From positions 4,902-68,901 of the forward strand of contig JAZRCM010000011.1 of the NCBI GenBank assembly GCA_045659785.1: a DNA stretch of 64,000 nt. Reading direction: 5' to 3'. Numbering within the stretch: position 1 is the first letter of the stretch; the number at the start of each line of letters is the position of its first letter. Shown piece after piece: positions 16,727 to 38,684 of the stretch. The DNA is from Alphaproteobacteria bacterium (lineage in GTDB: Bacteria > Pseudomonadota > Alphaproteobacteria > RF32 > CAG-239). Under the pieces are notes generated by a model. It was not told where the DNA came from, searched no databases, and worked only from the letters and a program-made list of their open reading frames with translations. The position numbers were made by a program, and so were the translations under genes.

Positions 16727-17854
16727 CTAGACTCTGTTTCTGGTGCGACGACGGGTATCTACTGAAGCTAACATCGGAGACTGTTTTACAATATTATGAT
16801 TTTTTCTGTTTTTATCAGTAAAATCATCAATAAAAATTTCTCTCATTTGTGCATTTTCTTCCGCTTTTGCTAGCAACATAGGGCTGATTTCATGGGGGGT
16901 AACTTCTTGAATAGGGGCTTGAATATCCATACCTGCCGATAAATAGTCTTTAATTTGACGAGCTTGTTCAATCGGTAAAATGGTATCTATATTTTCCCAA
17001 TCACCATTAATTAAATTTTCTCTTTCCAAATTTTGCATAATAGCTTTTTTGGTTAATTTTTTCATATGAATAACGATTGCGGTCGAATTTTTTAGCTCTC
17101 TAATACCGTCAATGTTAAAATTTAAGCAATAATGTTTTCCGTTAGTTTTTCCCAAATATTGACGGGCATGTCGGTCACCGTTACTGTTTCTGACCGTAAG
17201 TATAATATCTCCAGGCTCAAGATTGTTATAATTTATACGACCTGATTCCATGCAGTCTTTATATCCTTTTTGTCGTAAATATTCGGCAAAAGCATTGCAG
17301 CCGTTAGCATAACGACATTCTGAACTGTTAGGATCGGGTAAGACGTGAGATAAATCTCCGCCATAAGAATTTGCATCAATCAACGCTCGGTTTAATGCGG
17401 TAATACAATATGGGGTAGTTCCGGGAAGACCACGAACGGGAGAAACAACATCAAAAAAGTTTTCTTTTACATATTTTGTTTTGTTTCCGCAACTTTGGAG
17501 TGCTTCCAAATGATATTTTGCCGACTCTAAAAATTTTGAAATGAACCAATCAGCCCTTCTTTCTACTTCGGCATTTATGTTGAAAACAACCTTTCTTTCA
17601 TAGGCCAACAAATCGTCAGAAGGTTGGTCAAGCATTATGTTATGAGCTAACATTTCGGTATTATCTGGAATGTAATCAGATTGAACAGGATTGGGTGTTT
17701 GTGCCTGAACGTTAGAAATATTAAGAGCCACAGATGCAACGGTAGGCAGCAAAATCTTGCTTCCGGCTTTGATTATTCCATAGCGTTTAACGTAATATTT
17801 TAATTTATTGAGACGCACGAGGGCGGCTGTTTTCTGATTTTTTTTGTTCATCAT
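16727..17854 (-). CDS. Hypothetical protein (possible Cys/His hydrolase)
   Basis: 375 aa with an N-terminal hydrophobic segment. Conserved-looking Cys (TPYCITALNRAL) and His (GDRHARQY) residues. No confident family assignment. Confidence 0.45.
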   Translation of the reverse strand: MMNKKNQKTAALVRLNKLKYYVKRYGIIKAGSKILLPTVASVALNISNVQAQTPNPVQSDYIPDNTEMLAHNIMLDQPSDDLLAYERKVVFNINAEVERRADWFISKFLESAKYHLEALQSCGNKTKYVKENFFDVVSPVRGLPGTTPYCITALNRALIDANSYGGDLSHVLPDPNSSECRYANGCNAFAEYLRQKGYKDCMESGRINYNNLEPGDIILTVRNSNGDRHARQYLGKTNGKHYCLNFNIDGIRELKNSTAIVIHMKKLTKKAIMQNLERENLINGDWENIDTILPIEQARQIKDYLSAGMDIQAPIQEVTPHEISPMLLAKAEENAQMREIFIDDFTDKNRKNHNIVKQSPMLASVDTRRRTRNRV

Positions 17855-18007: not shown

Positions 18008-18571
18008 ATGAATAATATTTTTACAAAAACTATACTGATTACTCTTGCCACAGTTTTGATGTGTGCGTGCGCAAACAAAGAAGTTCGTCCCGCGATTGTT
18101 CCGGGAGTTGAAATTAAACGAGAAGAACCTAAGAAAGTCGAACCGATTAAGACTAAAACTCATAAACTGGGAGTTATCGGAGCGATTGAACCGATATATT
18201 TCTTGCCCATGAAAACCCCGTTTAATGCCCGAATTGATACCGGAGCAGAAACATCTGCCGTTGATGTTGAAAATTTAGAATATTTTGAAAGAGACGGGGA
18301 AAAGTGGGTTTCTTTTGATTTGATAAACAGATTAAATAATGAAACACATCATTTTGAAAAGAAAATATATCGCAATCAAAAAGTAAAACGTTCAGAAGGC
18401 AGGGAAGAAAGGTTAGTGGTTTTGATGCAGGTAAAGTTCGGCGGAGAAATTATTAATGCTCAATTCAGCCTTTCGGACAGAGATAAATTCAAATATCAAG
18501 GTTTGGTCGGACGCAACATAATTACCGGTCGAGCGATTGTAGATACAGCAATAAGTAATACACTAAAATAG
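18008..18571 (+). CDS. Retropepsin-like aspartyl peptidase lipoprotein (the family mis-named 'ATP-dependent Zn protease', RimK-associated)
   Basis: Lipoprotein signal ...VLMCACANKE. IDTGAETSAVD D-T/S-G active-site motif. Second half-barrel with GRNIITGRAIVD. Confidence 0.65.
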   Translation: MNNIFTKTILITLATVLMCACANKEVRPAIVPGVEIKREEPKKVEPIKTKTHKLGVIGAIEPIYFLPMKTPFNARIDTGAETSAVDVENLEYFERDGEKWVSFDLINRLNNETHHFEKKIYRNQKVKRSEGREERLVVLMQVKFGGEIINAQFSLSDRDKFKYQGLVGRNIITGRAIVDTAISNTLK

Positions 18572-18583
18572 TCAGGAAAACTA

Positions 18584-20116
18584 ATGTTACAAAAACTTAA
18601 ATCAGTTAGAATGTTATTGGGCATCGGGCTTTTTGCTTCGGTGCTTTTTGCCGCATACAGTATTTATTATAAAATCGAATATTGGGGGTTTAGTTGGGCT
18701 CCGAAACAAAAAACAGCGGTATGGACAATAGAAGCTCATGTCGCCTTTAAGCCTACCGGAACACCCATAAAAGTATCAATAGCCAGACCATCGGCTTCTA
18801 AAGGTTTTAAGGTTTTGGATGAAGATGTCGTTGCTCCTAAATATGATATAGATATGCAAGAAGAAAAAGTTATTTTGACTTCTAAACCTCGCAGTAAAAT
18901 GCAAGATGTGTATTATCGTGTTTTGTTGTACGATAATGTAGAGAGCAGAGGCAAAACGCCGGCACCTAAACCGGAAAAAATTGTTAAACCGATATTAGAT
19001 GAGCAGTCTTTGAGTGTCGCTTATCAAATTTTGGAAACAGCAAAGGGTATAGACGGAGATGAGGTTTGTCAGGTTATAAAACTGTTAAATCAAACTCCTC
19101 CCGATGAAACCGTGCGCTCTTTTATGCCGGAACGTCGCAGCGATAAAGAAACAGCTCAGGCAATTGTTGATTTATTGGCATTGAAAAATATTTCGGCTCG
19201 TATGGTCAGAGGTATAAAATTACAAGAAGATAAAAAAACATTTATGCCGGATGTTATGATTGAGGCATATATGGATAATATGTGGAAAATATATAATCTT
19301 CATACCGGAAAAAAAGGTTTACCGAGTGACTTTATCATTTTTCAAAGAGGTAACCGCCCATTGGTTGATGTGGTCGGGGGAGAAGATTCGGTTATAAAAT
19401 ATTCGGTTATGAAATCCTTAAGCACCTCATATAAAATGGCCGGTCATCGTGCAAAGTTGGCAAATCAGGAAGGACGCTTCGGTTATTCTATTTATAATTT
19501 GCCGCTTAACCAACAAAATGCTTTGAAGTGGTTGATGATATTCCCATTAGCTATTTTGGTAGTAGTTTTGATGCGTAATGTCGTCGGTATTTCTACAATG
19601 GGTACATTTACTCCGATGTTGATTGCAATGTCTTTGGTTGAAACAGGTTTTGTTTATGGTTTGGCCTGTTTCACCATTATTATCGGTATCGGAATTTTGA
19701 TAAGAGCTCTTTTATCACGATTAAATTTATTGTTAGTTCCGAGAATTTCAGCGGTGGTAATTTTTGTTATTATCATAATGCAAATTTTAGCGATTATCGG
19801 CTATAATTGGCAGTTACCGATAGCTTCTTCCGCTTTGTTCTTCCCGATTATTATTACCGCATGGATAATTGAGAGAGCTTCAATAACTTGGGAAGAAGAC
19901 GGAGCAAGAAATGCGTTGAGAGAAATTGTAAACAGTGTATTGGCTGCGATTGTAACTTATTTCGTTATTGTAAATGATACAATCCGTCATATCATGTTTG
20001 CATTTAACGAACTGAATTTAGTGATTTTATTTGTTGTAATGTTGCTTGGTACATATACCGGATATCGTATAACCGAATTAACTCGTTTTGCACCTTTAGC
20101 TAAAAAGGAAAAATAA
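18584..20116 (+). CDS. Inactive transglutaminase-like domain fused to a 7TM domain
   Basis: 510 aa. N-terminal TM, periplasmic transglutaminase-like region, C-terminal cluster of about 7 TM helices. Confidence 0.6.
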   Translation: MLQKLKSVRMLLGIGLFASVLFAAYSIYYKIEYWGFSWAPKQKTAVWTIEAHVAFKPTGTPIKVSIARPSASKGFKVLDEDVVAPKYDIDMQEEKVILTSKPRSKMQDVYYRVLLYDNVESRGKTPAPKPEKIVKPILDEQSLSVAYQILETAKGIDGDEVCQVIKLLNQTPPDETVRSFMPERRSDKETAQAIVDLLALKNISARMVRGIKLQEDKKTFMPDVMIEAYMDNMWKIYNLHTGKKGLPSDFIIFQRGNRPLVDVVGGEDSVIKYSVMKSLSTSYKMAGHRAKLANQEGRFGYSIYNLPLNQQNALKWLMIFPLAILVVVLMRNVVGISTMGTFTPMLIAMSLVETGFVYGLACFTIIIGIGILIRALLSRLNLLLVPRISAVVIFVIIIMQILAIIGYNWQLPIASSALFFPIIITAWIIERASITWEEDGARNALREIVNSVLAAIVTYFVIVNDTIRHIMFAFNELNLVILFVVMLLGTYTGYRITELTRFAPLAKKEK

Positions 20117-21075
20117 TGTTCGGATGGTTTAAAAATTTTGCTACTCCTTCGCAACTTAGAGCTGCCGGTGTTTTAGGTATGAATGCTCGCAATTATGATA
20201 TTATTGCCAAGAGTAACAAACGTCGCTTATATCCTTTGGTTGATGATAAGGTACAAACCAAAAAGTTAGCTAATGAAGTTGGGATTAACACTCCTCGTCT
20301 TATCGGAATAGTGGAAGTTCAAAACGAAGTTGATAAATTTTTGGATTTGGTAAAAGACTATAAAGAATTTGTAATTAAACCAGCTCACGGCTCCGGTGGA
20401 AAAGGTGTTTTGGTTATCAAGCAATATGATGCCGAAAACTTTGTTACCGCTTCTGAAAAAGTTTTAACTTATAACGAGGTGTATCAGCATATTTCCAATA
20501 TTTTGAGCGGACTTTACAGTTTAGGCGGCAAATATGACATTGCTTTGATTGAAGAAATGGTGCACTTTTCCAATCAGTTTCAAGATTTCAGTTATCAAGG
20601 TATTCCTGATGTGCGAGTTATTGTATATCAAGGTTTTCCGGCATTGGCAATGATGCGTTTGGCAACAAAAGAATCGGGAGGCAGAGCAAATTTACACCAA
20701 GGTGCGGTAGGCGTAGGAATTGATGTAAAAACCGGATGTGCGATTTCTGCCGTTTCACACAATTTGCCGATAGCAATTCATCCCGATACTAAAGCCGATT
20801 TAATGGAGTTAAAAGTTCCTTTTTGGCGAGAGCATTTAGAGATTGCGGTTAAAGGTTATGAAATGACCGGATTGGGATATTTAGGTGCAGACATCGTTTT
20901 GGATAAATTTAGAGGTCCGATGATGTTGGAGCTTAATGCCCGCCCCGGTCTGGCAATTCAAATTGCTAACAATCGCGGTTTGCGAAATATTTTAGAAGAC
21001 ATAAAAAATAATTATCCCAAAGGCTTAAATCCGCAACAACGTTTGGATTATGTGTTAGGTGTTGCGAAAGACTAA
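20116..21075 (+). CDS. RimK-like ATP-grasp ligase (alpha-L-glutamate ligase-related protein)
   Basis: N-terminal GMNARNYDIIAKSNKR, ATP-grasp core (KPAHGSGGKGVLVI, ELNARPGLAIQ). ATG overlaps the stop of the upstream gene. Confidence 0.7.
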   Translation: MFGWFKNFATPSQLRAAGVLGMNARNYDIIAKSNKRRLYPLVDDKVQTKKLANEVGINTPRLIGIVEVQNEVDKFLDLVKDYKEFVIKPAHGSGGKGVLVIKQYDAENFVTASEKVLTYNEVYQHISNILSGLYSLGGKYDIALIEEMVHFSNQFQDFSYQGIPDVRVIVYQGFPALAMMRLATKESGGRANLHQGAVGVGIDVKTGCAISAVSHNLPIAIHPDTKADLMELKVPFWREHLEIAVKGYEMTGLGYLGADIVLDKFRGPMMLELNARPGLAIQIANNRGLRNILEDIKNNYPKGLNPQQRLDYVLGVAKD

Positions 21076-21875: not shown

Positions 21876-24734
21876 ATGACAAAAAGAACACAGTTTTTCA
21901 CTATGTTATTAGCCGGAACTTTTATTACTTCATCGGCAATGGCAGATATTTATAGCGATATTCCGCAGACAGAATTTGGAAGCGGTAATGAAACTAAATA
22001 TTTTGAATGGACGTCTCCTTTTGAGGGAGCTGAAGACCTCTTTGGTTTTATGAGCGAAGTTGATACTCCTACTTCAGGCAAAACCACAGTAACAGCAAAA
22101 TATTCGGAACCGACAGAAACAGAAAGATTGTATATTGATGATGAAGGCGATATTAATGCTAATTTTGTTGATATTGTCAGCGAACAATATACAGATTTTT
22201 ATGGCGGTGCTATTTACAATGAAATGGCTTATGGTAACAACATAAAAGGTACTTTTATCGGTAATATGGCTATGCCGTACATCCAAGGACCTACAAATTT
22301 AACTCCTGAATCTATCGGTGTTAGCCTGATGGAATATACACCATCTTATGATTACGATTCTGCTTGGGGTGGAGCTATCGCAAACGGTCGAGCAGATGCA
22401 GTATTAGGTAATGTTGAAGGCACTTTTATCGGTAATGTTGCTTATGCTGAAGTAAGCGCCGGTGGAGGAGCAATAAGTAACTCCGGACAAATGGGAGATA
22501 TAAAAGGAGATTTTATTGGCAATACGGCGGTTGGAGGTGAGGCTGTTTTTGGCGGTGCAATTGTTACTTCGGCATTTTTGACCGAGTATTACAATCCGAC
22601 CGCATCTTCCGGTACAATTTCGGGTAATTTTTATGGTAATACAGCTATTGCTACTTATGGAGCCGCATTTGGTGGTGCGATAACTGCCGGAAGTTACAAA
22701 GAAATTAATATCGAAAATTCTAACTTCTATAACAATACAGTTGCCGGTGATTATTGGGCACAAGGCGGAGCAATTTATGCTTACAGATTGTCTGAAACCG
22801 ACGGAAGTTGGTTGCCGGTAGTTGTTAAAAATTCTAATTTTTATAACAATGGAGCGATAAGTGGTAACGGGTATGTAACGGTCGGTGGCGCTATTTCTGC
22901 TGACTCAGAATTAACGATTATAAATTCTAACTTTTATAACAATTATGTAATGTCTACATCGCCTAATGGAAATACTATTCCTTTTGGTGGAGCTATAGGT
23001 CTTTTATACGGCAATAAGCTCAATATCTATGCAGATGGAGCAGATTCCGTATTTTCAGGTAACTACATATCTATTCAAGGCGAAAAAATTGATAATGCGA
23101 TTATGACGTCAGGAGATATAAATCTTAATGTTAAAAACAATGGTAAAATCGTTTTTGATGATAGTATAATTGCAGGTGATTTAATGGGAGTTGGGACTAT
23201 TCCTAATTTGAATATTAGTGGCGATAAATGCCCTAATTGTTTGGTAAACAGCGTTATTTTCAATAGTGGTGTTATGGTGCCAGGTAATGTAACTCTTGAT
23301 ACTACACAAATGGTGTTAGGTAAAAATGCGGCGATTTTAGCATATGGGGATTATGAAGCTAAAAATAATCCGATTTTGCGAGTTGAATTAGATGCTTCAA
23401 CCGGAGAAGCCGGAAAACTTTATGCGGGTGATATTAAAGGAACAACAGGAGTTATTGTTGATACCAAAAACTATAAAGATATACGCGGGCAAGGAAGTAT
23501 TTTTTTTGCTGCAGCTGGTGTTGCTGATGGCGAAGCTAATGAAAAATCTTTTGAAATTTTACGCGTAATCGGTTCTCCTTATATGTATAAAATTGATTAT
23601 CAAACAGATATGACGGTAGATATTAGTGGTACATGGTTTGAAAAAATGGAAGGTATAACAGAGGTTGATGTAGCCAAGGCTTGGGGTGTAACAATGACCG
23701 ATGAAGCAAACACCTATACCGAAGACTGCGATCCTAAACCGGAACCACAACCACAACCACAACCACAACCTTTAGGTCCGGTTGAGGTTGCTCCGGAGGT
23801 TATTGCCATGGAAGCATTGCCTTCAGCAGCAGTTGCTCAAACCAGTGGAATGATTTATAACATTATGCGTAAAGTTAATATAAACAGATTATATTGCCCC
23901 GGTTGCGGTTTCTATGACTATAATTGGGACGGCAAACCTTTGCATAATGCTTGGGTAGATACTTTCTATAACGGTTTGGAAATTGATGCTCCGGTTGCTA
24001 TTGATGCTGATGTATGGGGTATTGAAGCCGGTGCTGATATTCAACATGATTTGAGCAACAAACTCGGTATATTCGTATCTTATCGTCAAGGTAATTATGA
24101 AATGGACGGTAAAGGAGACAAATATTATTCAAAATCCGGAAGTGAACTTGATATCGATAGTTATTTAGCCGGATTGTATTATCGTTATGATAATAATAAT
24201 TGGTACGCATTTGCTACTTTGTACGGCGGTATGCAAGAAGCTGAAGTTACAACAGATGACGGTCTTTCCAATTATGATACCGACGGCATAGAATTTGGTG
24301 GAAGCGCTGAAGTAGGTTATAGCTATGCTTTGAACAACACCGTATATGTAACACCAAGTTTAGGTGTATTCTATACTCAAGTAAATTATGATGATGCCAC
24401 AGATAATCTTGGTAAAACCGTCGAATATGATGATTTGAAACAAGTTGAATTAGAGGCTGGTATAAAATTGAGTAAAGCTATTTATACAGACAATGGTGCT
24501 GCAAGCATTTATGTCAAACCTAGTGTTGTTCAAACTTTGGTTGATGGTGATGAGGTTAATATTACCAAAATCGGCAAAGTTGATACAATCGAAGATGAAA
24601 CATTAGGCAGAGTTGAAGTCGGCGGAAACTATGGTTTCAATGACAACTGGTCAGCATACGGTTGGGCTAACTATACCTTCGGCTCAGACTATGAGGCTAC
24701 ATCTCTTGGTTTAGGTGTTAATTATAGTTGGTAA
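21876..24734 (+). CDS. Autotransporter (type Va) with a beta-helical Gly-rich passenger and C-terminal 12-strand barrel
   Basis: Signal peptide. Repeated FGGAI / GGAI(S/T) pectin-lyase-like turns. PEPQPQPQPQP linker. C-terminal barrel ending GLGVNYSW. Confidence 0.75.
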   Translation: MTKRTQFFTMLLAGTFITSSAMADIYSDIPQTEFGSGNETKYFEWTSPFEGAEDLFGFMSEVDTPTSGKTTVTAKYSEPTETERLYIDDEGDINANFVDIVSEQYTDFYGGAIYNEMAYGNNIKGTFIGNMAMPYIQGPTNLTPESIGVSLMEYTPSYDYDSAWGGAIANGRADAVLGNVEGTFIGNVAYAEVSAGGGAISNSGQMGDIKGDFIGNTAVGGEAVFGGAIVTSAFLTEYYNPTASSGTISGNFYGNTAIATYGAAFGGAITAGSYKEINIENSNFYNNTVAGDYWAQGGAIYAYRLSETDGSWLPVVVKNSNFYNNGAISGNGYVTVGGAISADSELTIINSNFYNNYVMSTSPNGNTIPFGGAIGLLYGNKLNIYADGADSVFSGNYISIQGEKIDNAIMTSGDINLNVKNNGKIVFDDSIIAGDLMGVGTIPNLNISGDKCPNCLVNSVIFNSGVMVPGNVTLDTTQMVLGKNAAILAYGDYEAKNNPILRVELDASTGEAGKLYAGDIKGTTGVIVDTKNYKDIRGQGSIFFAAAGVADGEANEKSFEILRVIGSPYMYKIDYQTDMTVDISGTWFEKMEGITEVDVAKAWGVTMTDEANTYTEDCDPKPEPQPQPQPQPLGPVEVAPEVIAMEALPSAAVAQTSGMIYNIMRKVNINRLYCPGCGFYDYNWDGKPLHNAWVDTFYNGLEIDAPVAIDADVWGIEAGADIQHDLSNKLGIFVSYRQGNYEMDGKGDKYYSKSGSELDIDSYLAGLYYRYDNNNWYAFATLYGGMQEAEVTTDDGLSNYDTDGIEFGGSAEVGYSYALNNTVYVTPSLGVFYTQVNYDDATDNLGKTVEYDDLKQVELEAGIKLSKAIYTDNGAASIYVKPSVVQTLVDGDEVNITKIGKVDTIEDETLGRVEVGGNYGFNDNWSAYGWANYTFGSDYEATSLGLGVNYSW
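23745..23770 (+). repeat. Coding (ccacaa)n hexanucleotide microsatellite encoding the PQPQPQPQ linker of the autotransporter
   Basis: Four to five tandem ccacaa units read directly. The repeat length is a multiple of 3, so frame is kept. Confidence 0.6.
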
Positions 24735-24916
24735 TGACACTCCTCATTATCACAAAGAAGGGAGGCTATTTGCCTCCCTTTGTCATTATGAGAAAATTTA
24801 TTGCCATGAAAGTTAAAAAATACTCATTATTGTTAATAAAAATCATAAAAAAGTGCAATTTTCATTATATTCATATATTTTATAACCAAAGATGTGAAAT
24901 TTTATGGAGAATGACT

Positions 24917-26035
24917 ATGAATTTATGTCGTAAATTGTTTTTATTAACCGGTTGTATTTTGGCGTTTAGTGCTTGTAAGGACAACAATACAAATCAAGCG
25001 GCTCAAACTGCACCGCAAAAGGTTAGTGTGTTGGAATTAACACCGCAAAATATTCCTTTGAGTTTTGAGTTTTCCGCTCGTGCTCAAGGTTCAAAAGAAA
25101 CCGAAGTTCGTGCTCGTGTCAGCGGAATTTTGTTAAAACGCAACTATGTTGAAGGCTCTAAGGTTGAAGAAGGCAGTGTTTTGTTTGAGATTGACCCGGA
25201 TCAATATAAAGTTGCTTTAGATCAGGCAAAAGCTCAATTAGCTCAAGCAAAGGCACAATTTATAAATGCCGAAACACAATGGAAACGTACAGATGAACTC
25301 CATAAACAAGGTTTTGCCAGTGATAAAGCTTTAGACGAAGCAAGAGCAACCATGGACTCTTTAGCTGCTTCTAAAGAGTTGGCAGAAGCTGCTGTTGAAG
25401 CTGCTAAACTTAATTTTGACTATACAACGGTTAAAGCTCCGATTAGCGGTATCACAAGCATGGAAGCTCAATCGGAAGGAAGTTTGATTTCAACAACCGG
25501 GTTGCTGACCAAAATTGTTCAGGTAGATCCTATTTATGTGATTTTCTCAGCTTCTGAAAAAGAAATTATGTCTTTGCGTGATATGACTGAAAGAGGTCTT
25601 ATTAAAAACCCGGAAAATAAATCAGAAATCGTTGCTAAAGTAAAATTTGGAGACGATACTTTGTATAACCAAAGCGGAACCGTTAACTTTATTAATCCTA
25701 CCGTTGACGAAAGTACCGGGACAATCAAACTTCGTGCCGTATTTCCTAACGAAGAAGGAAGAGTTCGTCCGGGACAATTTTTGCGTTTGGTTATGGAAGG
25801 TTTAACTCGTTTAGATGCTTTAACACTTCCGCAAGAGGCTGTTATGCAAGAAGCAAACGGTTCTTATGTATATCGTGTAAATGCCGAAAATAAGGTGGAA
25901 TCCGTTGCCGTAAGAACAGGGCTTACAACACCTGACGGAAAATGGATTATTGATGAAGGTCTTAAAGCCGGCGATAAAGTAATCGTTTCCGGATTGCTCA
26001 AGCTTCGTCCGGGAATGAGTGTTGTTGCCGAATAA
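24917..26035 (+). CDS. RND efflux membrane-fusion protein lipoprotein (AcrA-like)
   Basis: Lipobox LLTGCILAFSAC. Coiled-coil hairpin (LAQAKAQ...). Beta-barrel and MP domains. Start at the ATG with a ggaga RBS. Confidence 0.8.
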   Translation: MNLCRKLFLLTGCILAFSACKDNNTNQAAQTAPQKVSVLELTPQNIPLSFEFSARAQGSKETEVRARVSGILLKRNYVEGSKVEEGSVLFEIDPDQYKVALDQAKAQLAQAKAQFINAETQWKRTDELHKQGFASDKALDEARATMDSLAASKELAEAAVEAAKLNFDYTTVKAPISGITSMEAQSEGSLISTTGLLTKIVQVDPIYVIFSASEKEIMSLRDMTERGLIKNPENKSEIVAKVKFGDDTLYNQSGTVNFINPTVDESTGTIKLRAVFPNEEGRVRPGQFLRLVMEGLTRLDALTLPQEAVMQEANGSYVYRVNAENKVESVAVRTGLTTPDGKWIIDEGLKAGDKVIVSGLLKLRPGMSVVAE

Positions 26036-26050
26036 TAGTGAGGATTTAAT

Positions 26051-29000
26051 ATGTTTTCAAAGTTTTTTATTGAAAGACCGATTTTCTCTACGGTAATTTC
26101 TTTGGTTATCGTTTTGGCCGGTCTTGTTTCTATGAAAGCCTTGCCGATTGAACAATATCCTAATATTGTTCCTACCGAAATTCAAATTACGGCAATGTAT
26201 CCGGGGGCTACGGCAGAAGTTTTGGCCGATACCGTTGCTGCTCCTATTGAACAAGAATTAAACGGCGTTAAGAATATGATTTATATGTATTCTAATGCTA
26301 CATCCAGCGGTTATTTGACAATCGGTGCCGTATTCGAAATCGGTACAGATCCCGACCAGGCAACCATTGACGTTAACAACAAAGTTCAGGCTGCAACTTC
26401 AAAACTTCCGAGCGAAGTTACAAAAATGGGCGTTACCGTTGAGCAAAAATCTAACTCAATTCTTCAGGTTATTGCAATGCGTTCAACATCTGAAAAATAC
26501 GATTCAGTATATGTTGCAAACTATGCTTTGTTGAACGTGTTGGATGAAATTAAACGTATTAAAGGTGTAGGTAGTGCTTCGTTGTTCGCATCGCAAGACT
26601 ATTCTATGCGCATTTGGTTGAGTCCTGATAAATTGGCAGATTATAATATGACACCGCAAGATGTCATTGCAGCCGTTCAAGAACAAAACTCTCAATTTGC
26701 TGCCGGTCAATTTGGGCAAGAACCGATGGACGAATATCAACCGTACACATATTCGGTGAACACTAAAGGCCGTTTGGTTGATGAAAAAGAGTTTGGAGAA
26801 ATCATTCTCAGAACAGATGAAAAAGGCGGAATTTTGCGTCTTAAAGATGTTGCTCGTATAGAGTTGGGGGCACAAGATTATAGTGTTACCTCAACTTTTA
26901 ACGGCAAAGAAGCCGTTGCTTTCGCTATCTATCTGCAACCGGGAGCAAATGCTCTTGAAACAGCAGAGTTAGTAAATAACAAAATGCAAGAATTATCTAA
27001 AAACTTCCCTGACGGCATTACCTATGAAATTCCGTATGATACGACTTTGTTTGTGAACGTATCTATTCATGAGGTTATTCATACCTTTTTTGAAGCGGTT
27101 GTTTTGGTTATTATCGTAGTATATTTGTTCTTGCAAAGTATTCGTGCCACAATCATTCCGATTTTGGCGGTTCCGGTTTCTATTATCGGTGCTTTTGCCG
27201 GAATGTATTTGTTAGGCTTTTCAATTAACTTGCTGACTTTGTTCGGGTTGATTTTGGCAATCGGTATCGTGGTGGACGATGCGATTATTGTGTTGGAAAA
27301 CGTTGAACGTTTGATGCACGATGAAAAACTGTCACCGAAAGAGGCGGCAATCAAGGCGATGCAAGAAGTTTCTGGTCCGGTAGTGGCTGTGGCTTTAGTG
27401 CTTTCGGCTGTGTTCTTACCGATTGCATTTTTAGGCGGTATGACCGGTGTAATGTATAAACAATTTTCGGTAACCATTGCCGTTTCGGTGCTGATTTCAG
27501 CTCTTGTGGCTTTAACTTTGACACCATCACTTTGTGCTTTGATTATTAAAGATGAACATAAAGAACCTAAAGGATTTTTCCGTTGGTTTAATGCTTTCTT
27601 TGATAAATTGACCGAATGGTATTTAGCCGGTGTAAAATTCTGCTTAAATTATCGCAAAATTACAATGTTAGGTTTTGCCGGTGTTTGTGTAGCAATCGTA
27701 ATGTTGTTTAAAATTGTTCCGGGAGGTTTGGTTCCTAACGAAGATTTAGGAAACCTTTTGATGGCGTATAATATGCCGGAAGCATCATCATTACCTCGTA
27801 CGGAAAAACTTACCGATACGGTCAGTAAGGCAATTATGGAAAATCCTGATGTTGTTGATGTGTTGACAATTAACGGATTTAATATGTTATCTGCAAGCCA
27901 AAATACATATTCTGCCGTTAGCTTTATTATATTGAAGGATTGGGAAGAAAGAAAGTTATTAACTCAATCTGCAGACCATTTGGCAAAAGTGTTTAGCGGT
28001 ATCGGAATGAGCCAACCGGAAGGTGTTGCTGCTGCTTTCTCAATGCCGCCGATTACAGGTATGAGTATGACCGGAGGTTTTGAAGGTTATATTCAAAACC
28101 GTTCAGGTAAAACATCACAAGAATTGATGGCTAAAACTCAAGAGTTTATTGCAGAAGCATCAAAAAGACCTGAATTGGCAAATGTAAAAACTACGTTTTC
28201 GGTCAGCACACCGCAATATCGTATTGATTTAGACCGTGAAAAAGCTCGAGTTATGAATGTACCGATTAATTCTGTTTATACGGTTATGCAATCAACATTC
28301 GGTAGCTTGTATGTTAATGACTTTACCTATATGGGACGTAATTTCCGTGTTAGTGTTCAGTCAGAGGCAAAATTCCGTCGTACTCCTGATGATTTGCGTT
28401 ATGTTTATGTTAAGTCAAATGACGGAAAACTTGTTCCGTTATCTACATTGCTCAATGTTGAAAGAGTAACCGGTCCGGAGTTGGTTAACCGCTTCAATAT
28501 TTTCCCTGCTGCAAAGGTTATGGGTGACCCTGCTAACGGTTATTCTTCCGGTCAGGCTATTGCCGCAATGGAAGAAGTGGCAGAAAAAGTATTGGGTAGC
28601 GAATACAGTTTGTCTTGGATTGGTTCCGCATATCAGGAAAAATTAGCAGGAGGTGCTTCTACACAGGCATTTGCTTTCGGATTGATAATGATATTCTTGA
28701 TTTTGGCAGCTCAATACGAAAAATGGTCTTTACCGATGGTAGTTATTCTTTCGGTTCCGTTCGCCGTATTAGGTGCTTTGATTGCGGTTTATCTGCGTGG
28801 TATTCAAAACGATTTGTATTTCCAAGTAGGTTTGGTAACATTGATTGGTTTGGCTGCCAAAAACGCAATTTTGATTGTGGAATTTGCGGTAGTAAAAGTT
28901 GAAGAAGGCTTGAGCTATGCAAATGCCGCTATTGAGGCTGCAAAACTTCGTTTCCGTCCGATTGTTATGACTTCTTTGGCATTTACTTTCGGTGTATTGC

Positions 29001-29164
29001 CATTGGCAATTTCTACCGGAGCCGGTGCAGGAAGCCGTCACTCTATCGGTACCGGAATGATTGGCGGTATGATTTTATCAACTTTCGTAGCAACATTGTT
29101 TGTTCCGATGTTCTTTGCAATAATCGGAGAAATGTTTGATAAAAAACATAAAGTCAAAGGATAA
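26051..29164 (+). CDS. RND multidrug efflux transporter (AcrB/MexB-like)
   Basis: 1037 aa, 12 TM helices with two large periplasmic loops. Conserved VVDDAIVVLENVER and GxGAGS motifs. Confidence 0.9.
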   Translation: MFSKFFIERPIFSTVISLVIVLAGLVSMKALPIEQYPNIVPTEIQITAMYPGATAEVLADTVAAPIEQELNGVKNMIYMYSNATSSGYLTIGAVFEIGTDPDQATIDVNNKVQAATSKLPSEVTKMGVTVEQKSNSILQVIAMRSTSEKYDSVYVANYALLNVLDEIKRIKGVGSASLFASQDYSMRIWLSPDKLADYNMTPQDVIAAVQEQNSQFAAGQFGQEPMDEYQPYTYSVNTKGRLVDEKEFGEIILRTDEKGGILRLKDVARIELGAQDYSVTSTFNGKEAVAFAIYLQPGANALETAELVNNKMQELSKNFPDGITYEIPYDTTLFVNVSIHEVIHTFFEAVVLVIIVVYLFLQSIRATIIPILAVPVSIIGAFAGMYLLGFSINLLTLFGLILAIGIVVDDAIIVLENVERLMHDEKLSPKEAAIKAMQEVSGPVVAVALVLSAVFLPIAFLGGMTGVMYKQFSVTIAVSVLISALVALTLTPSLCALIIKDEHKEPKGFFRWFNAFFDKLTEWYLAGVKFCLNYRKITMLGFAGVCVAIVMLFKIVPGGLVPNEDLGNLLMAYNMPEASSLPRTEKLTDTVSKAIMENPDVVDVLTINGFNMLSASQNTYSAVSFIILKDWEERKLLTQSADHLAKVFSGIGMSQPEGVAAAFSMPPITGMSMTGGFEGYIQNRSGKTSQELMAKTQEFIAEASKRPELANVKTTFSVSTPQYRIDLDREKARVMNVPINSVYTVMQSTFGSLYVNDFTYMGRNFRVSVQSEAKFRRTPDDLRYVYVKSNDGKLVPLSTLLNVERVTGPELVNRFNIFPAAKVMGDPANGYSSGQAIAAMEEVAEKVLGSEYSLSWIGSAYQEKLAGGASTQAFAFGLIMIFLILAAQYEKWSLPMVVILSVPFAVLGALIAVYLRGIQNDLYFQVGLVTLIGLAAKNAILIVEFAVVKVEEGLSYANAAIEAAKLRFRPIVMTSLAFTFGVLPLAISTGAGAGSRHSIGTGMIGGMILSTFVATLFVPMFFAIIGEMFDKKHKVKG

Positions 29165-29679: not shown

Positions 29680-30600
29680 TTAAAACATAAAACTACCACC
29701 TGCACCGATATAAGGAGAGAGTACATTGCTGTACTTCAAACCGGCCTCGGCAAAAAGAGTGGCCTTACCCTTAGTAAGTCCGGTCACAAGGTGAATACCC
29801 TGAGCTGCACGCTTAGCCCAAGCAGAAGCAGAAACAGATAACATTCCATCACCAACCGCAATATTATTGCGAGCATAAGACAGAATAACGTTACTGTTTT
29901 CAGTTCCGAGCTTGTTGCCGGTTACGGTAATATGGTTATTACCGGCGACAACCTTGGCAGCAGCAAAACCGGAAACAGACTGACCGAAGTCAGCACCACC
30001 GGTAAGACGCAACCAGTTACATATAGGTACCTCTGTATAAGCGTACCAGTTACCGTCATTGAAACGGTAGAAGCTGCTACCTCCCTGATGACCGAAACCG
30101 AAAGTAAAATACTTGTGATTCAAAGCTAACTGCATAGCATTTGATACACCTGCGCCTTCACCCATAATAGTACAGTAGTTACTGAACTGTGGGTCAATCA
30201 TAGGAGTAACTATGGTTGAGCGCTTGAAATTACCCATTCGGTACTCAAGGTTAAGGTTGTCAAAGTTATAGCCCGCCTTGGCATAAAGTACCGGAGTACA
30301 AATACCAAACTCGGTTGAGAGACCACCCACCATATTTCCGCCTAAATAGAAACGGTCATAGTAGCGAGTGTGAGAACCTATAAGAATCAGCTGGAAAAGC
30401 TGCTGGTCAGTAGTAGCATTTACTGAAACAGAACCGCCGAGAGATGTCTCGGTTTTGCTCTTCTCGTTCAGCTCTTTAAGGTTCAAACCACCGTCACCGG
30501 CAGTAAACACGTTGTTATCTCCACCCTTTGGGGCAATAACAACAATAACAACTAAGATAGCAATCGTAACGATTGCGTAAAAGAAGTTTTTCTTGTTCAT
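29680..30600 (-). CDS. Outer-membrane beta-barrel protein, hypothetical
   Basis: N-terminal hydrophobic anchor/signal. Alternating strands. C-terminal ...GAGGSFMF aromatic terminus. Visibly higher G+C. Confidence 0.5.
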   Translation of the reverse strand: MNKKNFFYAIVTIAILVVIVVIAPKGGDNNVFTAGDGGLNLKELNEKSKTETSLGGSVSVNATTDQQLFQLILIGSHTRYYDRFYLGGNMVGGLSTEFGICTPVLYAKAGYNFDNLNLEYRMGNFKRSTIVTPMIDPQFSNYCTIMGEGAGVSNAMQLALNHKYFTFGFGHQGGSSFYRFNDGNWYAYTEVPICNWLRLTGGADFGQSVSGFAAAKVVAGNNHITVTGNKLGTENSNVILSYARNNIAVGDGMLSVSASAWAKRAAQGIHLVTGLTKGKATLFAEAGLKYSNVLSPYIGAGGSFMF

Positions 30601-31669: not shown

Positions 31670-32842
31670 TTAAAGATTAGAGAGTTCATACTCCAGATTC
31701 TTGCGAGCCTGTTCTTCAAAATTATTGTAAAAGAACGAAGTGTGGAAAATTTGATTGCTTTCGGCAAATCTTTCGAGAACCTTTCTCCTTTCGGGAATAT
31801 AAATCTCGTCAGGATATACGGCATATTCTTTACGAATAGCGGTATTGTAGTTTTTCCATACACGTCTTTCAAATGTTCCGAGAACACTCAAGTCAAGGTC
31901 AGCAATCAACGCGTAGTCGTTGTTCAATCTGTCTCCGCTGTGAGAGGTTGCCATAACCAAACCTCGAGCCAGTTCAACAGATATTGTATCAACAAGGTCG
32001 TTGCGCATGTCGAAGATAACGCCGGCAGAAGCCATTTCGTTAGAATACGGTAACGGCATGCGACCATTGTCATTGACTTCCATCCTTGCAATCGACGAGT
32101 TGTCGCCATGGTCGGTATTATACACATAATCATGCATAAAAATTGCTAATACAAGCTCTTTATGGTTACTAAAGTCTGCACAATGAGAATTTTGTGACAG
32201 ATAAATTTGTAACATATTGAGCATATAAGCAATATGCGATAAGTTATGGTACTGACGACCACGATAAGCCTTTAGCAAATCTTTCCAATGATAAAGTGCA
32301 TCGACTTCGGTTTTGAACAATGTTAACCACAATTCGCGAAGATACAACTCACACATAGCCTCGTGAACATTTGCCGGTACACAGCGAGCTGCAGCAATGT
32401 ATTGGCGAAGTTCAAACAGATTTTTTACGGCTGTTGATGATATATTGGCAGAAAATACATCATTTGAGTTATAGAACTTTGTTTCAAGTTTAAACCCTCG
32501 TATTTTTGCCAGATATTGATTCATAACAGCTAACTTGTTTTCGTTTTCTAAGTCATTTGTGCCGGGACGAACACCTCGGATAAGGACGTTAGCATCGTAA
32601 GCCATTGCAACATCAACAGTCAAACCGCTTTCGGCGATTATCATAATGTTTTGACGCTCCGGCCAATCTTTGATAGCTTCCTTAATCAGCTCAACGCGTT
32701 TCTCAACGGAAAATAACGGTGTCTTTTCACTGTTTTTACCGACATTAACGATAACTGTTTTAAACGATTTTGCGGCTCTCTTGATTATATCAAGGTGAGC
32801 TACGGTAATAGGATCAAATGATCCGCTAAAAATTGCTCTCAT
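31670..32842 (-). CDS. coaD: Phosphopantetheine adenylyltransferase (CoaD) fused to a C-terminal HD-type phosphohydrolase-like domain
   Basis: The N-terminal ~160 aa (AIFSGSFDPITVAHLDII ... VLIRGVR) align with CoaD. About 230 extra C-terminal residues carry YHNLSH ... FMHDYVY ... DLDLS, an H..H/HD/D metal-binding pattern. Confidence 0.7.
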   Translation of the reverse strand: MRAIFSGSFDPITVAHLDIIKRAAKSFKTVIVNVGKNSEKTPLFSVEKRVELIKEAIKDWPERQNIMIIAESGLTVDVAMAYDANVLIRGVRPGTNDLENENKLAVMNQYLAKIRGFKLETKFYNSNDVFSANISSTAVKNLFELRQYIAAARCVPANVHEAMCELYLRELWLTLFKTEVDALYHWKDLLKAYRGRQYHNLSHIAYMLNMLQIYLSQNSHCADFSNHKELVLAIFMHDYVYNTDHGDNSSIARMEVNDNGRMPLPYSNEMASAGVIFDMRNDLVDTISVELARGLVMATSHSGDRLNNDYALIADLDLSVLGTFERRVWKNYNTAIRKEYAVYPDEIYIPERRKVLERFAESNQIFHTSFFYNNFEEQARKNLEYELSNL

Positions 32843-32945
32843 AGAAAATAATATTTTAGAGTGTTAATAATTTTCGAAACTTGTTTATTTTTAACACAAA
32901 TAAAATTTTTTGTCTATAAAAAACAACTTTAATGTCAGACAAAAC

Positions 32946-34703: not shown

Positions 34704-35963
34704 TTAAGCGTTTTGTCTTTTCATTTGTGCGATTTTACCGGCAAGCCCATCGCTAATCTTTCTTGCGGTATTTGATTGCGGTTGATTTTGTGTAGCCTGT
34801 TCGGGAGAAGAAGCATTATTTTCTCGATGTTCAGATATACGCTCACGCCCTTCAGTAGATTTTACTTCACGTATCATAGCTCTTAATTCGGTATCATATC
34901 CTAAATATTGAGCAGTATCTTTAGCTCCACTTTGTTTTATACATGTACGTATCACTTCGTTTTTGCGTAAATCAATATCATGTATTCTTGTTTTAGAACA
35001 CATTTCATGAAATTCAGCTAACTGCTCATGAGTAAAGTCGGGTTCACGTGTGATTTCAAAAGTCATACGAAGTAAGTCTGCATCAGATTTTCCTTGTAAC
35101 AATTCGGGATTTTTTGCGTATTGTTCAAGTTGCTTGTATGTATTAGGCATTAGATATGTCATTGAGCCTTTTTTGATTTCTCTATCGAAATTATAATCAG
35201 AATTTCCACTTTGTGCTTTTTGAAAAGTTTCAATAGTATATTTAGATTTTGAACGGGCAAAATTATATACTTCCCACATTGTTTCTGCGTGTTCAGGATG
35301 TTCTTTCATCACTCGCAATAAAGCAAAAGTATCGCATTTTCTCTCGTCATCTGTTCCTAAAGCAGCATGCACGGCTTCATGATATAAACCTCGTTTTAGG
35401 GTCATCTCCTTAAAAACTTCGGGAGGAATTGCATCTACTTTGTCCATAATATCTTTTGGGAGACCTTTTGCGCTTTTCGGGAGTTTTTCAGAACTGTCCG
35501 GAAGGCAGATTATTTGTGCATTTCCAATGTGGCGACTTATGTAGTTAGTGTTAGATTTAGCTCCATTATATATTGTATCGGCATAAAATGCTTCAAGACT
35601 AACAGGTTTTCCGTTATTATAGAACAAAGTGTTTCCCATGCTTTCCGGAGAGATTTCTACTCCATTTTGTTTCAATAAATCTACAACCTTTTGGGCCCTA
35701 AGTTTTGTTTGCTCTGTTTCCGGAAGTGTTGAAATTATTTCACTATGTGTTTCAAATTCGTGAGCATTTGCTAATATTATGTTATCACATACAGGATTAT
35801 CGGCATCTCGTTGCATTGTTCCCGCATTATATAATGGGTCTTCAATAGTTTGGGGCAAGGTATCTTTGCAAGACAAATATGTTTGCCGCAATTGGCGAGC
35901 AAAGTCTTGGTGTTTGGCAATGAAATCATCATATACTTGACTTAAATCATCTTGCATATACAT
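34704..35963 (-). CDS. Hypothetical protein with a zincin-like HExxH motif (LYHEAVHAALG)
   Basis: 419 aa. No signal peptide. Single HEAVH motif. Low-complexity Q/N/S-rich C-terminus. Confidence 0.45.
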   Translation of the reverse strand: MYMQDDLSQVYDDFIAKHQDFARQLRQTYLSCKDTLPQTIEDPLYNAGTMQRDADNPVCDNIILANAHEFETHSEIISTLPETEQTKLRAQKVVDLLKQNGVEISPESMGNTLFYNNGKPVSLEAFYADTIYNGAKSNTNYISRHIGNAQIICLPDSSEKLPKSAKGLPKDIMDKVDAIPPEVFKEMTLKRGLYHEAVHAALGTDDERKCDTFALLRVMKEHPEHAETMWEVYNFARSKSKYTIETFQKAQSGNSDYNFDREIKKGSMTYLMPNTYKQLEQYAKNPELLQGKSDADLLRMTFEITREPDFTHEQLAEFHEMCSKTRIHDIDLRKNEVIRTCIKQSGAKDTAQYLGYDTELRAMIREVKSTEGRERISEHRENNASSPEQATQNQPQSNTARKISDGLAGKIAQMKRQNA

Positions 35964-37231: not shown

Positions 37232-38206
37232 TTAGTGTCTGTGATAGGGGAATTTTATCGGCATTTTAACATTACGACTTTTTTCGCCGCCGTCGATAGC
37301 TTGTAAAATATCTTGACAGTCATCGTAAAAAGGTGTGTCGGTGTATTTTTCTAAAGCATTTTTGATGCAGTCAAATTTGAAATTGTCGCTGTTTGCCGTT
37401 GCTTTATATACTTTATTAATTGCATATTTGCGACAAATTTCTTTGCCTTTGGAATCTGTTGTTCCGGTCAGTTCTTTTACTTTGCGATTCATTTTTATGC
37501 GGTGGTTTTGATATTGTTTTGTTATATCAATATGTTTGATGCTGTGTTCGCGCACCAGTCTCTCATAAAGAAGATTGATGTAGGTGGAACGATATGACAA
37601 TTTTTTGAGTAAGTCGTCATTTTTATATTCGAAAGCCCATTTATTTAGGCTATGTATTTCTTTGCCGATTTTTTCATTTTGAGTTTTTCTCATCATATCG
37701 GGCATAAGCTGATACATTTTTTGCAATTTCGGATTATGACTTTCACAATTTGCGAAAGTTTGGCTGAGGTGTTCAATATCTTGAGTGCTAAAATCGGTAG
37801 TTTTAATCTTTTCTAATATAAAATCTTGGTATCTTTTTATGAAACTGTCCGGAATACGGGAAGAAAAGTCACTGTTAACTTTATCTATAATTTGAACTAT
37901 TCGGGATAGGGCATTAATATCCGGTCGGCGAGATGATGCGGTTATCTCATCAAAAAGCTCTTGTTCTTGAGTTGATGATTTTCTCCATAAAAGCATATTT
38001 ATAGGATAAAAACTCACATAATCGTCTTTAGGCGACAACTTGGCAAATACGGTTACGAGCTTGTCGAATCCTTTGTTGTCAATTTTTTGACCGGACAGAA
38101 CATAGTTCTCCATGGTATGATATGCTTCGGCATAGTCATACACATTGTCAACATTGACAAACAAATCTTCAAACTCTTTAACCGCATTTGCCTTGTTGTC
38201 GGTCAT
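37232..38206 (-). CDS. Hypothetical protein
   Basis: 324 aa. No signal peptide, no recognisable motifs. Lys/Asp-rich. Confidence 0.45.
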   Translation of the reverse strand: MTDNKANAVKEFEDLFVNVDNVYDYAEAYHTMENYVLSGQKIDNKGFDKLVTVFAKLSPKDDYVSFYPINMLLWRKSSTQEQELFDEITASSRRPDINALSRIVQIIDKVNSDFSSRIPDSFIKRYQDFILEKIKTTDFSTQDIEHLSQTFANCESHNPKLQKMYQLMPDMMRKTQNEKIGKEIHSLNKWAFEYKNDDLLKKLSYRSTYINLLYERLVREHSIKHIDITKQYQNHRIKMNRKVKELTGTTDSKGKEICRKYAINKVYKATANSDNFKFDCIKNALEKYTDTPFYDDCQDILQAIDGGEKSRNVKMPIKFPYHRH

Positions 38207-38210
38207 TTTT

Positions 38211-38684
38211 TTAGTATCCGTTATAAGGGATTACACGAGCTCTTGAAGAACCGTCTCCATAAAGAACCATACAACGTTGACCGTTGGCTAACAATACATC
38301 GTTGCCTTGAGTTACGGTAATAATTCCGCCATTGTCGAGTTGAACAACATATTCATATCCGCCTTGGCTTGAAAGGCTGCCTTGAGCCAAGTTTCCGGCT
38401 GCACCGCCCAATAAAGCTCCTGCTGTTCCGCCGATTAAGGCTGCAGTATTGCCTTTGCCTACTTGAGAGCCTGCAATACCGCCGGCAATTGCTCCGAGTG
38501 CTGTACCACCGGACTTGTTGCTGTCACGAACAGTGATGCTGCGAACAGAAATTACGGTTCCTTTCAATGCTTTGGTGATAGAGCCTACTGAAGCAGAATC
38601 GTATTGGTTGGCACCGATATCGGCAGCACAGGCACTCATCAACATCAAAGCGGGAATGGCAAGAATTAATGCTATTTTTTTCAT
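38211..38684 (-). CDS. Glycine-zipper outer-membrane lipoprotein (SlyB/Pcp / 17-kDa-antigen-like)
   Basis: Lipobox LMLMSACA. GAIAGGIAGSQVGKGNTAALIGGTAGALLGGAAG glycine zipper. Confidence 0.7.
   Translation of the reverse strand: MKKIALILAIPALMLMSACAADIGANQYDSASVGSITKALKGTVISVRSITVRDSNKSGGTALGAIAGGIAGSQVGKGNTAALIGGTAGALLGGAAGNLAQGSLSSQGGYEYVVQLDNGGIITVTQGNDVLLANGQRCMVLYGDGSSRARVIPYNGY

Follow-up and report, generated by a model that had tools for sequence, protein, structure and literature searches.

Why should CoaD (phosphopantetheine adenylyltransferase, PPAT) be joined to a hydrolase-like domain of the HD superfamily? The question is raised by one gene in a stretch of 64,000 nucleotides from an Alphaproteobacteria bacterium (assembly GCA_045659785.1, contig JAZRCM010000011.1), here called the window. 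Is the fusion real? Are both parts likely to be active? Does the association occur in other bacteria, and on what might the hydrolase act? We find that the fusion is real. Its product is predicted, from sequence and structural models, to be a rigid two-domain enzyme in which CoaD and an HD/phosphodiesterase-like hydrolase with a full ligand set are joined without a linker. Together with translationally coupled pairs of coaD and HD genes in other bacteria, the fusion suggests that coenzyme A (CoA) synthesis has an editing or recycling step not yet described.

The fusion gene

The gene occupies positions 31670-32842 of the minus strand and comprises 390 codons and a stop codon, the end coordinates including the latter. 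Translation of the same interval on the plus strand is riddled with stops. An initial annotation of this DNA had described a single uninterrupted frame, which the list of open reading frames (ORFs) confirms, although it left the strand unstated. It had also assigned the first 160 or so residues to CoaD, which the profile and structural matches given below bear out, and placed the junction of the two parts near 32360. That is about right, residue 165/166 falling at 32347/32348. Every motif that it cited could be located.

The exact 390-residue protein is public (NCBI, ENA and Logan) as P0225, in a group of 27 sequences clustered at 90% identity, one of them from JGI/IMG. The cluster includes GenBank entry MBR5482560.1, named 'pantetheine-phosphate adenylyltransferase', and the GenBank hosts are metagenome-assembled genomes (MAGs) labelled 'Alphaproteobacteria bacterium'. 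A search with the C-terminal part of the protein returned approximately 28 clusters, 355-390 residues in length and with identities of 33-99%, that also carry PF01467 and so represent the same fusion; relatives at only 33-48% identity retain the continuous CoaD-HD architecture. The full-length AlphaFold2 (AF2) model has a predicted TM-score (pTM) of 0.87, with predicted local distance difference test (pLDDT) values of 95-97 over the junction. Here residues 157-173 (32324-32374, minus strand) form a continuous helix that runs from the C-terminal helix of CoaD into the first hydrolase helix with no linker, as both the model and the alignment to split gene pairs show. That a frameshift in sequencing or assembly joined two separate genes is effectively refuted: overlapping split coaD and HD genes do exist elsewhere, and a one-base mistake might in theory look like a fusion, but the identical protein recurs in assemblies of NCBI, ENA, Logan and JGI that are independent of one another, the homologous clusters hold a single frame down to 33% identity, the window frame contains no stop and the junction helix is confidently predicted.

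The CoaD domain

CoaD converts ATP and 4'-phosphopantetheine to dephospho-CoA, an essential and rate-controlling step in CoA synthesis and an antibacterial target. The domain covers residues 1-165 (32348-32842, minus strand). Residues 2-165 align with positions 1-153 of the 155 in the TIGR01510 equivalog model, scoring 122.6 bits where the cutoff is 103.3 (E = 1.4e-35), and there is a match to PF01467 (CTP_transf_like, E = 1.8e-17). About 34 distinct solved PPAT sequences in the PDB match the same residues with E values down to 5.7e-22. The AF2 model displays a Rossmann-like β/α pattern with pLDDT mostly above 90.

The nucleotide-binding motif GSFDPITVAH (32795-32824, minus strand) is of the T/HxGH type with glycine changed to alanine, and its catalytic His16 is invariant in 28 fusion proteins. 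The RGVR motif lies at 32567-32578. His16, Lys40, Arg89/Arg92 and Ser135/Ser136 show either no variation or at least 90% conservation across the 28 proteins and align with PPATs of the PDB; their counterparts in the E. coli enzyme, which serve in catalysis and ATP binding, are His18, Lys42, Arg88/Arg91 and Ser128-Ser130. Judged by these residues the CoaD domain appears catalytically intact.

The C-terminal domain

Residues 166-390 (31673-32347, minus strand) are predicted to form an all-helical HD-superfamily domain that resembles phosphodiesterases (PDEs). Over their full length they match stand-alone proteins named 'HD superfamily phosphohydrolase' with E values of 1e-22 to 1e-10 and 30-36% identity; for the stand-alone relatives P0027-P0068 the values are 8e-22 to 5e-12 at a coverage of 86-100%. 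The domain scores 189 bits against a profile of this stand-alone family. Members are one-domain proteins of approximately 210-225 residues, many of them, about 221 residues long, carrying the JGI name 'predicted metal-dependent HD superfamily phosphohydrolase', and we take the family to be COG4339/InterPro IPR009218. It is large. A clean domain profile retrieves 18,884 representative clusters (E ≤ 0.001) among 1.84 billion, the top matches being nearly all single-domain proteins of 200-225 residues.

There is no Pfam or NCBIfam model for this family, and scans of residues 166-390 against both collections gave no match even at E values up to 10. This includes PF01966, the Pfam HD profile, whose gathering threshold the window domain does not reach. 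Only five of 74 relatives match PF01966, the best at E = 4.6e-4, and P0124 scores 21.6 bits where the cutoff is 22. The miss is attributable to profile sensitivity and we do not count it against membership of the HD superfamily. Profile searches of PDB sequences with HMMER gave marginal matches only, to YedJ and BH2835 (E = 0.004-0.008).

The H...HD...D pattern that defines metal ligands in the HD superfamily (Aravind and Koonin 1998) is present throughout the family, as His203 (with His199), His237-Asp238 and Asp315 (with Asp317), and aligns with the corresponding residues of YedJ and BH2835. The YHNLSH motif (32234-32251, minus strand) provides a putative general-acid histidine, His199, and the first metal-ligand histidine, His203; these and Asn200 are invariant in the fusions, and the equivalent His34 and His38 in domain numbering are invariant in 74 family members. 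The motif aligns with the H..H of YedJ and BH2835, and YHNxxH is also found in the PDE4D sequence, where we infer that the residues are structurally equivalent. In the HD dyad (32129-32134, minus strand), which aligns with that of YedJ and BH2835, His237 is invariant and Asp238 at least 90% conserved. Thr299-Ser-His301 (31940-31948, minus strand), ATKxH in the family, combines an invariant threonine with a histidine at least 90% conserved. The distal metal-ligand aspartate is assigned to DLDLS (31886-31900, minus strand), in which Asp315 is invariant, Asp317 at least 90% conserved and the pair is matched by D.D in YedJ.

Invariant or near-invariant positions in the family, in window numbering, are Arg196, Tyr198-His199-Asn200, His203, His237-Asp238, Tyr241, Glu269, Ser272, Thr299, His301, Asp315, Asp317, Tyr332, Arg337, Glu339, Tyr340 and Arg352; those invariant in domain numbering are Arg31, His34, His38, His72, Asp73, Tyr76, Glu104, Ser107, Asp150, Asp152, Tyr167, Glu174 and Arg187. 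The window domain and the stand-alone family share the motif set R-x-YHNxxH, HDxxY, NE..SA, AT.xH, D.DLS.LG and IRKEY. Since the H..H / HD / H / D.D ligand set is complete, the C-terminal domain looks catalytically competent.

The window domain is a clear homologue of the stand-alone proteins but differs in its fusion to CoaD and, in its own subclade, in a 22-residue insertion. The latter, residues 244-265 (DHGDNSSIARMEVNDNGRMPLP; 32048-32113, minus strand), follows the HD dyad and precedes the NE..SA motif; in alignment A1 it is confined to the window protein and its closest relatives, P0002 and P0004. With pLDDT below 50 it is predicted to be disordered, the sole such segment of the fusion protein.

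Other N-terminal partners of the family were noted. P0149 and P0194 have a DUF3267 'putative zincin peptidase' domain where CoaD would be, and in P0180 and P0198 the HD-family domain is preceded by 150-170 residues with no Pfam match. No link to CoA emerged from these partners, whether DUF3267 or the unassigned extensions. P0409, a homologue of L134:1417-2040 from a Verrucomicrobia MAG, is called 'N-methyl-D-aspartate receptor NMDAR2C subunit' in NCBI nr, evidently a propagated mis-annotation.

Relationship to other HD-type hydrolases

The AF2 model of the isolated domain, derived from a 74-sequence alignment, is all-helical with pLDDT of 89.8 and pTM of 0.86. Foldseek ranks PDE5 and PDE10 first, with TM-scores of 0.55-0.62, and the predicted structure has the fold of the class I PDE catalytic domain. 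Class I PDEs themselves belong to the HD superfamily. On this model, a compact PDE-like HD domain is the most fitting description of the C-terminal part.

Membership of the class I cyclic-nucleotide PDEs (PDE4, PDE9 and others; PF00233) was considered and rejected. The window domain has no match to PF00233, which detects only one of 74 relatives (E = 0.007), and hhalign comparison of the family profile with PDE4D, using a catalytic sequence identical to PDB chains at 278 of 279 positions, gives a probability of 0.45%. The signature HDxxHxG (HDVDHPG in PDE) reads HDYVYNT in the window domain, which lacks the second histidine of HDxxH and is about 100 residues shorter. AcpH membership was likewise rejected, there being no PF04336 match and an hhalign probability of 0.55% for the family profile against E. 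coli AcpH. Neither sequence similarity nor close structural similarity to YqeK (COG1713) was found.

The initial annotation had recognised an HD metal-ligand pattern in YHNLSH, HD and DLDLS, residues that prove to be conserved across the family and aligned with YedJ and BH2835, and its 'HD-like' label agrees with the predicted all-α HD fold, closest to class I PDEs. It had put forward a comparison with HD and YqeK profiles; no similarity to PF01966 or YqeK was found, and the stand-alone HD phosphohydrolase family is matched. Its overall reading, a CoaD and HD hydrolase fusion recalling the pairing of NadD with YqeK, is supported in that the fusion is real and recurrent and a coaD-HD operon exists elsewhere.

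coaD and HD genes in other bacteria

We fetched 79 loci of stand-alone HD-family genes from metagenomes and searched six-frame ORFs with a CoaD profile. A coaD ORF is directly upstream on the same strand in 13; this represents 12 of the 62 loci with at least 300 nucleotides of upstream sequence and nine of the 53 with at least 500. All nine full-length adjacent coaD genes are CoaD equivalogs, scoring 161-174 bits (TIGR01510). In at least five of the nine junctions examined (L120, L150, L159, L134 and L115) the stop codon of coaD shares nucleotides with the HD start, as ATGA or GTGA, and at L107 the gap is three nucleotides. Independent gene calls on long contigs give the order AAA_33 kinase, Thg1-like, coaD, HD at L169, with a four-nucleotide overlap, and coaD, HD, PP2C-like on the P0305 contig. 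At least one member of the coaD-adjacent lineage derives from a Verrucomicrobia MAG. Unbiased clustering of flanking ORFs identifies coaD as the commonest specific neighbour of the HD family.

In a neighbour-joining tree the coaD-adjacent HD genes fall mainly in one clade, apart from the monophyletic clade of fusions. When fusions are aligned with split pairs the end of CoaD abuts the start of the HD protein, the 'VPxxV...' helix leading to 'ERWxxLW' aligned with 'RELWLTLF'. Given this end-to-end join and the overlapping pairs, loss of a stop codon would yield exactly the fusion observed, which looks like the product of such an event in an overlapping coaD-HD pair.

In a clade from soil and freshwater, with one member named as Verrucomicrobia, the stand-alone HD gene is found in tight same-strand arrays with RNA-end enzymes: RlaP-HD-RlaP at L168 (2979-5454, gaps of 29 and two nucleotides), RlaP-coaD-HD at L120 (126-2724) and L107 (101-2033), and AAA_33 kinase-Thg1-like-coaD-HD at L169 (2158-4633). 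The L169 gene downstream of HD was considered as RlaP-like and rejected. The arrays suggest a possible link of the HD family, and perhaps of dephospho-CoA, to RNA 5'-end repair or capping.

Proposed function and alternatives

The reading that we favour, tentatively and with somewhat less than even confidence, is that the HD domain attacks dephospho-CoA that is aberrant, damaged or in excess, splits its nucleotide-5'-diphospho-pantetheine bond and returns 4'-phosphopantetheine to CoaD. The hydrolase would act on the chemistry of the CoaD reaction, as a metal-dependent diphosphatase or phosphodiesterase directed at this linkage. Wrong-nucleotide or damaged analogues of dephospho-CoA, or surplus dephospho-CoA, would be the substrates, and the products a 5'-nucleoside monophosphate (5'-NMP) and 4'-phosphopantetheine, the latter reusable by the adjoining CoaD active site. 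The HD domain would then be a proofreading or damage-control partner of CoaD, parallel to YqeK in its editing of NadD products. The choice of substrate follows from the NadD-YqeK precedent and the release of 5'-NMP by PDE-type chemistry. To our knowledge no editing or antagonistic partner of CoaD has been described.

Several observations weigh against this proposal. Gene association and fold are the sole grounds for the proposed substrate, the PDE likeness is structural only, and neither functional nor biochemical work on any family member came up when the literature was searched for COG4339, IPR009218 and CoaD-HD fusions. Cleaving dephospho-CoA next to the enzyme that makes it carries the risk of a futile cycle, unless the activity is specific for aberrant products. 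Most stand-alone members, at about 80% of the loci in the metagenome set, are not beside coaD, and the general role of the family may exceed CoA metabolism. As a control we used 80 loci from a contig scan with the full-length fusion alignment, all of them ordinary coaD genes (Lachnospiraceae, Acidobacteriota, Cyanobacteria and other groups) and none from a fusion-bearing genome; an HD gene within 10 kb was seen at none of the 80, so the coaD-HD association is lineage-restricted and not universal. With regard to CoaD itself, the window protein has alanine at position 15 (TVAH) where over 90% of the 28 fusions have glycine, and its TIGR01510 score is 122.6 bits as opposed to 161-174 for the split CoaDs. 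Neither the 64-kb window nor, at the other fusion loci, the 8-10 kb of flanking sequence contained a second coaD.

A broader version of the idea, possible but doubtful, is that the PDE-like HD family provides a general 'de-nucleotidylating' quality control for nucleotidyltransferases. Paired with CoaD it would act on mis-made or damaged nucleotide-pantetheine conjugates, releasing NMP and 4'-phosphopantetheine, as a proofreading or damage-control step of CoA biosynthesis that has so far gone unrecognised; with RlaP and Thg1 it would do likewise on RNA ends.

It is rather unlikely that the domain is instead a salvage feeder, freeing 4'-phosphopantetheine from holo-acyl carrier protein (holo-ACP), from imported or damaged CoA or from acyl-CoA, with CoaD then rebuilding dephospho-CoA. 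There is a model for this in AcpH, an HD-family phosphodiesterase that releases the CoaD substrate from holo-ACP, but E. coli excretes phosphopantetheine derived from ACP and does not reuse it (PMC8557913). The phosphodiesterase-like fold and the rigid fusion are compatible with hand-over of a substrate, and cofactor salvage would be plausible in the gut, a possible origin of the host MAGs to judge from their accessions. Weighing on the other side, no relationship to AcpH is detectable by PF04336 or hhalign, and in the clustering of flanking ORFs genes for ACP, AcpS and other CoA enzymes do not recur near the HD family.

General nucleotide housecleaning, in which the domain hydrolyses dinucleoside polyphosphates of the diadenosine tetraphosphate (Ap4A) type or aberrant nucleoside triphosphates and has no specific tie to pantetheine, we also consider unlikely. 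Ap4A hydrolase and 8-oxo-GTP activities are ascribed to YqeK in PMC9426524 and in work cited there. The invariant arginines (Arg196, Arg337 and Arg352) and tyrosines might suit a polyphosphate substrate, and the HD family is very large and mostly unlinked to coaD.

Processing of RNA ends appears quite improbable. Here the family would remove nucleotidyl or cap-like groups (5'-App-RNA, dephospho-CoA-capped RNA) or heal cyclic-phosphate ends, and pairing with CoaD would reflect the use of dephospho-CoA to cap RNA 5' ends, or a cassette for repair. In support, the CCA-adding enzyme owes a 2',3'-cyclic phosphodiesterase activity to its HD domain, and the arrays at L168, L107, L120 and L169 combine the HD gene with RlaP and Thg1-like proteins. 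Such proteins work on RNA ends according to PMC12776372 and the titles of other papers. These contexts are nevertheless restricted to four closely related loci, as opposed to coaD at 13 or more, RNA-repair neighbours occur at none of the fusion loci examined, and the RlaP paper (PMC12776372) does not mention an HD partner.

That the domain is a bacterial cyclic-nucleotide PDE (of cAMP, cGMP or 2',3'-cyclic nucleoside monophosphates) regulating CoaD, or co-regulated with it, is very improbable given the absence of similarity at the sequence level, the HDYVY string in place of the signature and the lack of any biological reason why such an enzyme should be translationally coupled to coaD in two lineages.

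Locus and other genes of the window

The G+C content is approximately 37% across the whole window. A formate-tetrahydrofolate ligase gene is positioned upstream of the fusion gene on the same strand, separated by a 103-nucleotide spacer, and a convergent cation-diffusion-facilitator (CDF) gene ends 50 nucleotides downstream. The spacer contains two weak sigma-70-like promoter matches (32848-32916, minus strand), recognised by consensus only, which are weak evidence for a promoter of its own. Rfam and tRNA scans of the window gave nothing relevant. Neighbourhoods vary among the fusion loci; in place of the ligase and CDF transporter genes, rubrerythrin and trigger factor are neighbours in L001-L003, and MreB and a GNAT in L086. 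With no conserved neighbourhood around the fusion genes, the neighbours carry no functional signal.

Elsewhere on the plus strand, at 18008-21075, there is a three-gene cassette consisting of a putative ATP-dependent Zn protease (PF05618), a seven-transmembrane protein (PF14400/PF14402) whose transglutaminase domain is inactive, and a RimK-like ATP-grasp protein of the 'sugar-transfer associated' type (PF14397). We take this to be a recurrent association and probably a peptide-modification system. After a 952-residue autotransporter come an HlyD-type membrane-fusion protein and a 1037-residue AcrB-like pump of the resistance-nodulation-division (RND) type (21876-29164, plus strand), and 38211-38684 encodes a glycine-zipper lipoprotein of the Rickettsia 17-kDa-antigen type. 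The autotransporter, HlyD-type protein, pump and lipoprotein would fit a host-associated Gram-negative organism. Four minus-strand ORFs have no Pfam match at E ≤ 0.001: 34704-35963 (419 residues), which is between the formate-tetrahydrofolate ligase and a major facilitator superfamily transporter, 29680-30600 (306), 37232-38206 (324) and 16727-17854 (375).

Comparison with known systems

The protein is already in GenBank, annotated as CoaD only, and our literature searches found no paper describing a CoaD-HD fusion, a coaD-HD gene pair or a function for the family. As a kind, the combination of an adenylyltransferase with an HD hydrolase has a clear precedent.

In PanK4-type fusions an enzyme of the CoA pathway is joined to a metal-dependent phosphatase of the DUF89 type. 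The resemblance is that of a CoA-biosynthesis enzyme joined to a hydrolase acting on pathway intermediates or damaged forms; the pathway step and the hydrolase superfamily are different, and the PanK4 fusion is eukaryotic. AcpH, of a non-canonical HD family, offers a precedent, in concept, for the action of HD enzymes on pantetheine phosphodiesters, being an HD phosphodiesterase whose product, 4'-phosphopantetheine, is the CoaD substrate (PMC8557913). Its homology to the window domain is undetectable beyond the level of the superfamily. We know of no instance of AcpH fused to CoaD or clustered with its gene.

The closest worked precedent is NadD-YqeK. The HD domain is fused to nadD in most mycoplasmas and clustered with it in Firmicutes, and the YqeK domain hydrolyses wrong-nucleotide dinucleotides made by NadD (PMC9426524). 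In both systems a small adenylyltransferase of the HIGH-motif fold is partnered by an HD hydrolase, as a fusion in one lineage and as a tight gene cluster in another. The fusion and the independently found coupled pair supply a first concrete, testable functional hypothesis for a family of about 19,000 representative clusters. If our proposal of an editing hydrolase is true, it would add a metabolite damage-control step to CoA metabolism, and CoaD-HD would extend the principle of an adenylyltransferase plus HD proofreader from NadD-YqeK to a second cofactor pathway.
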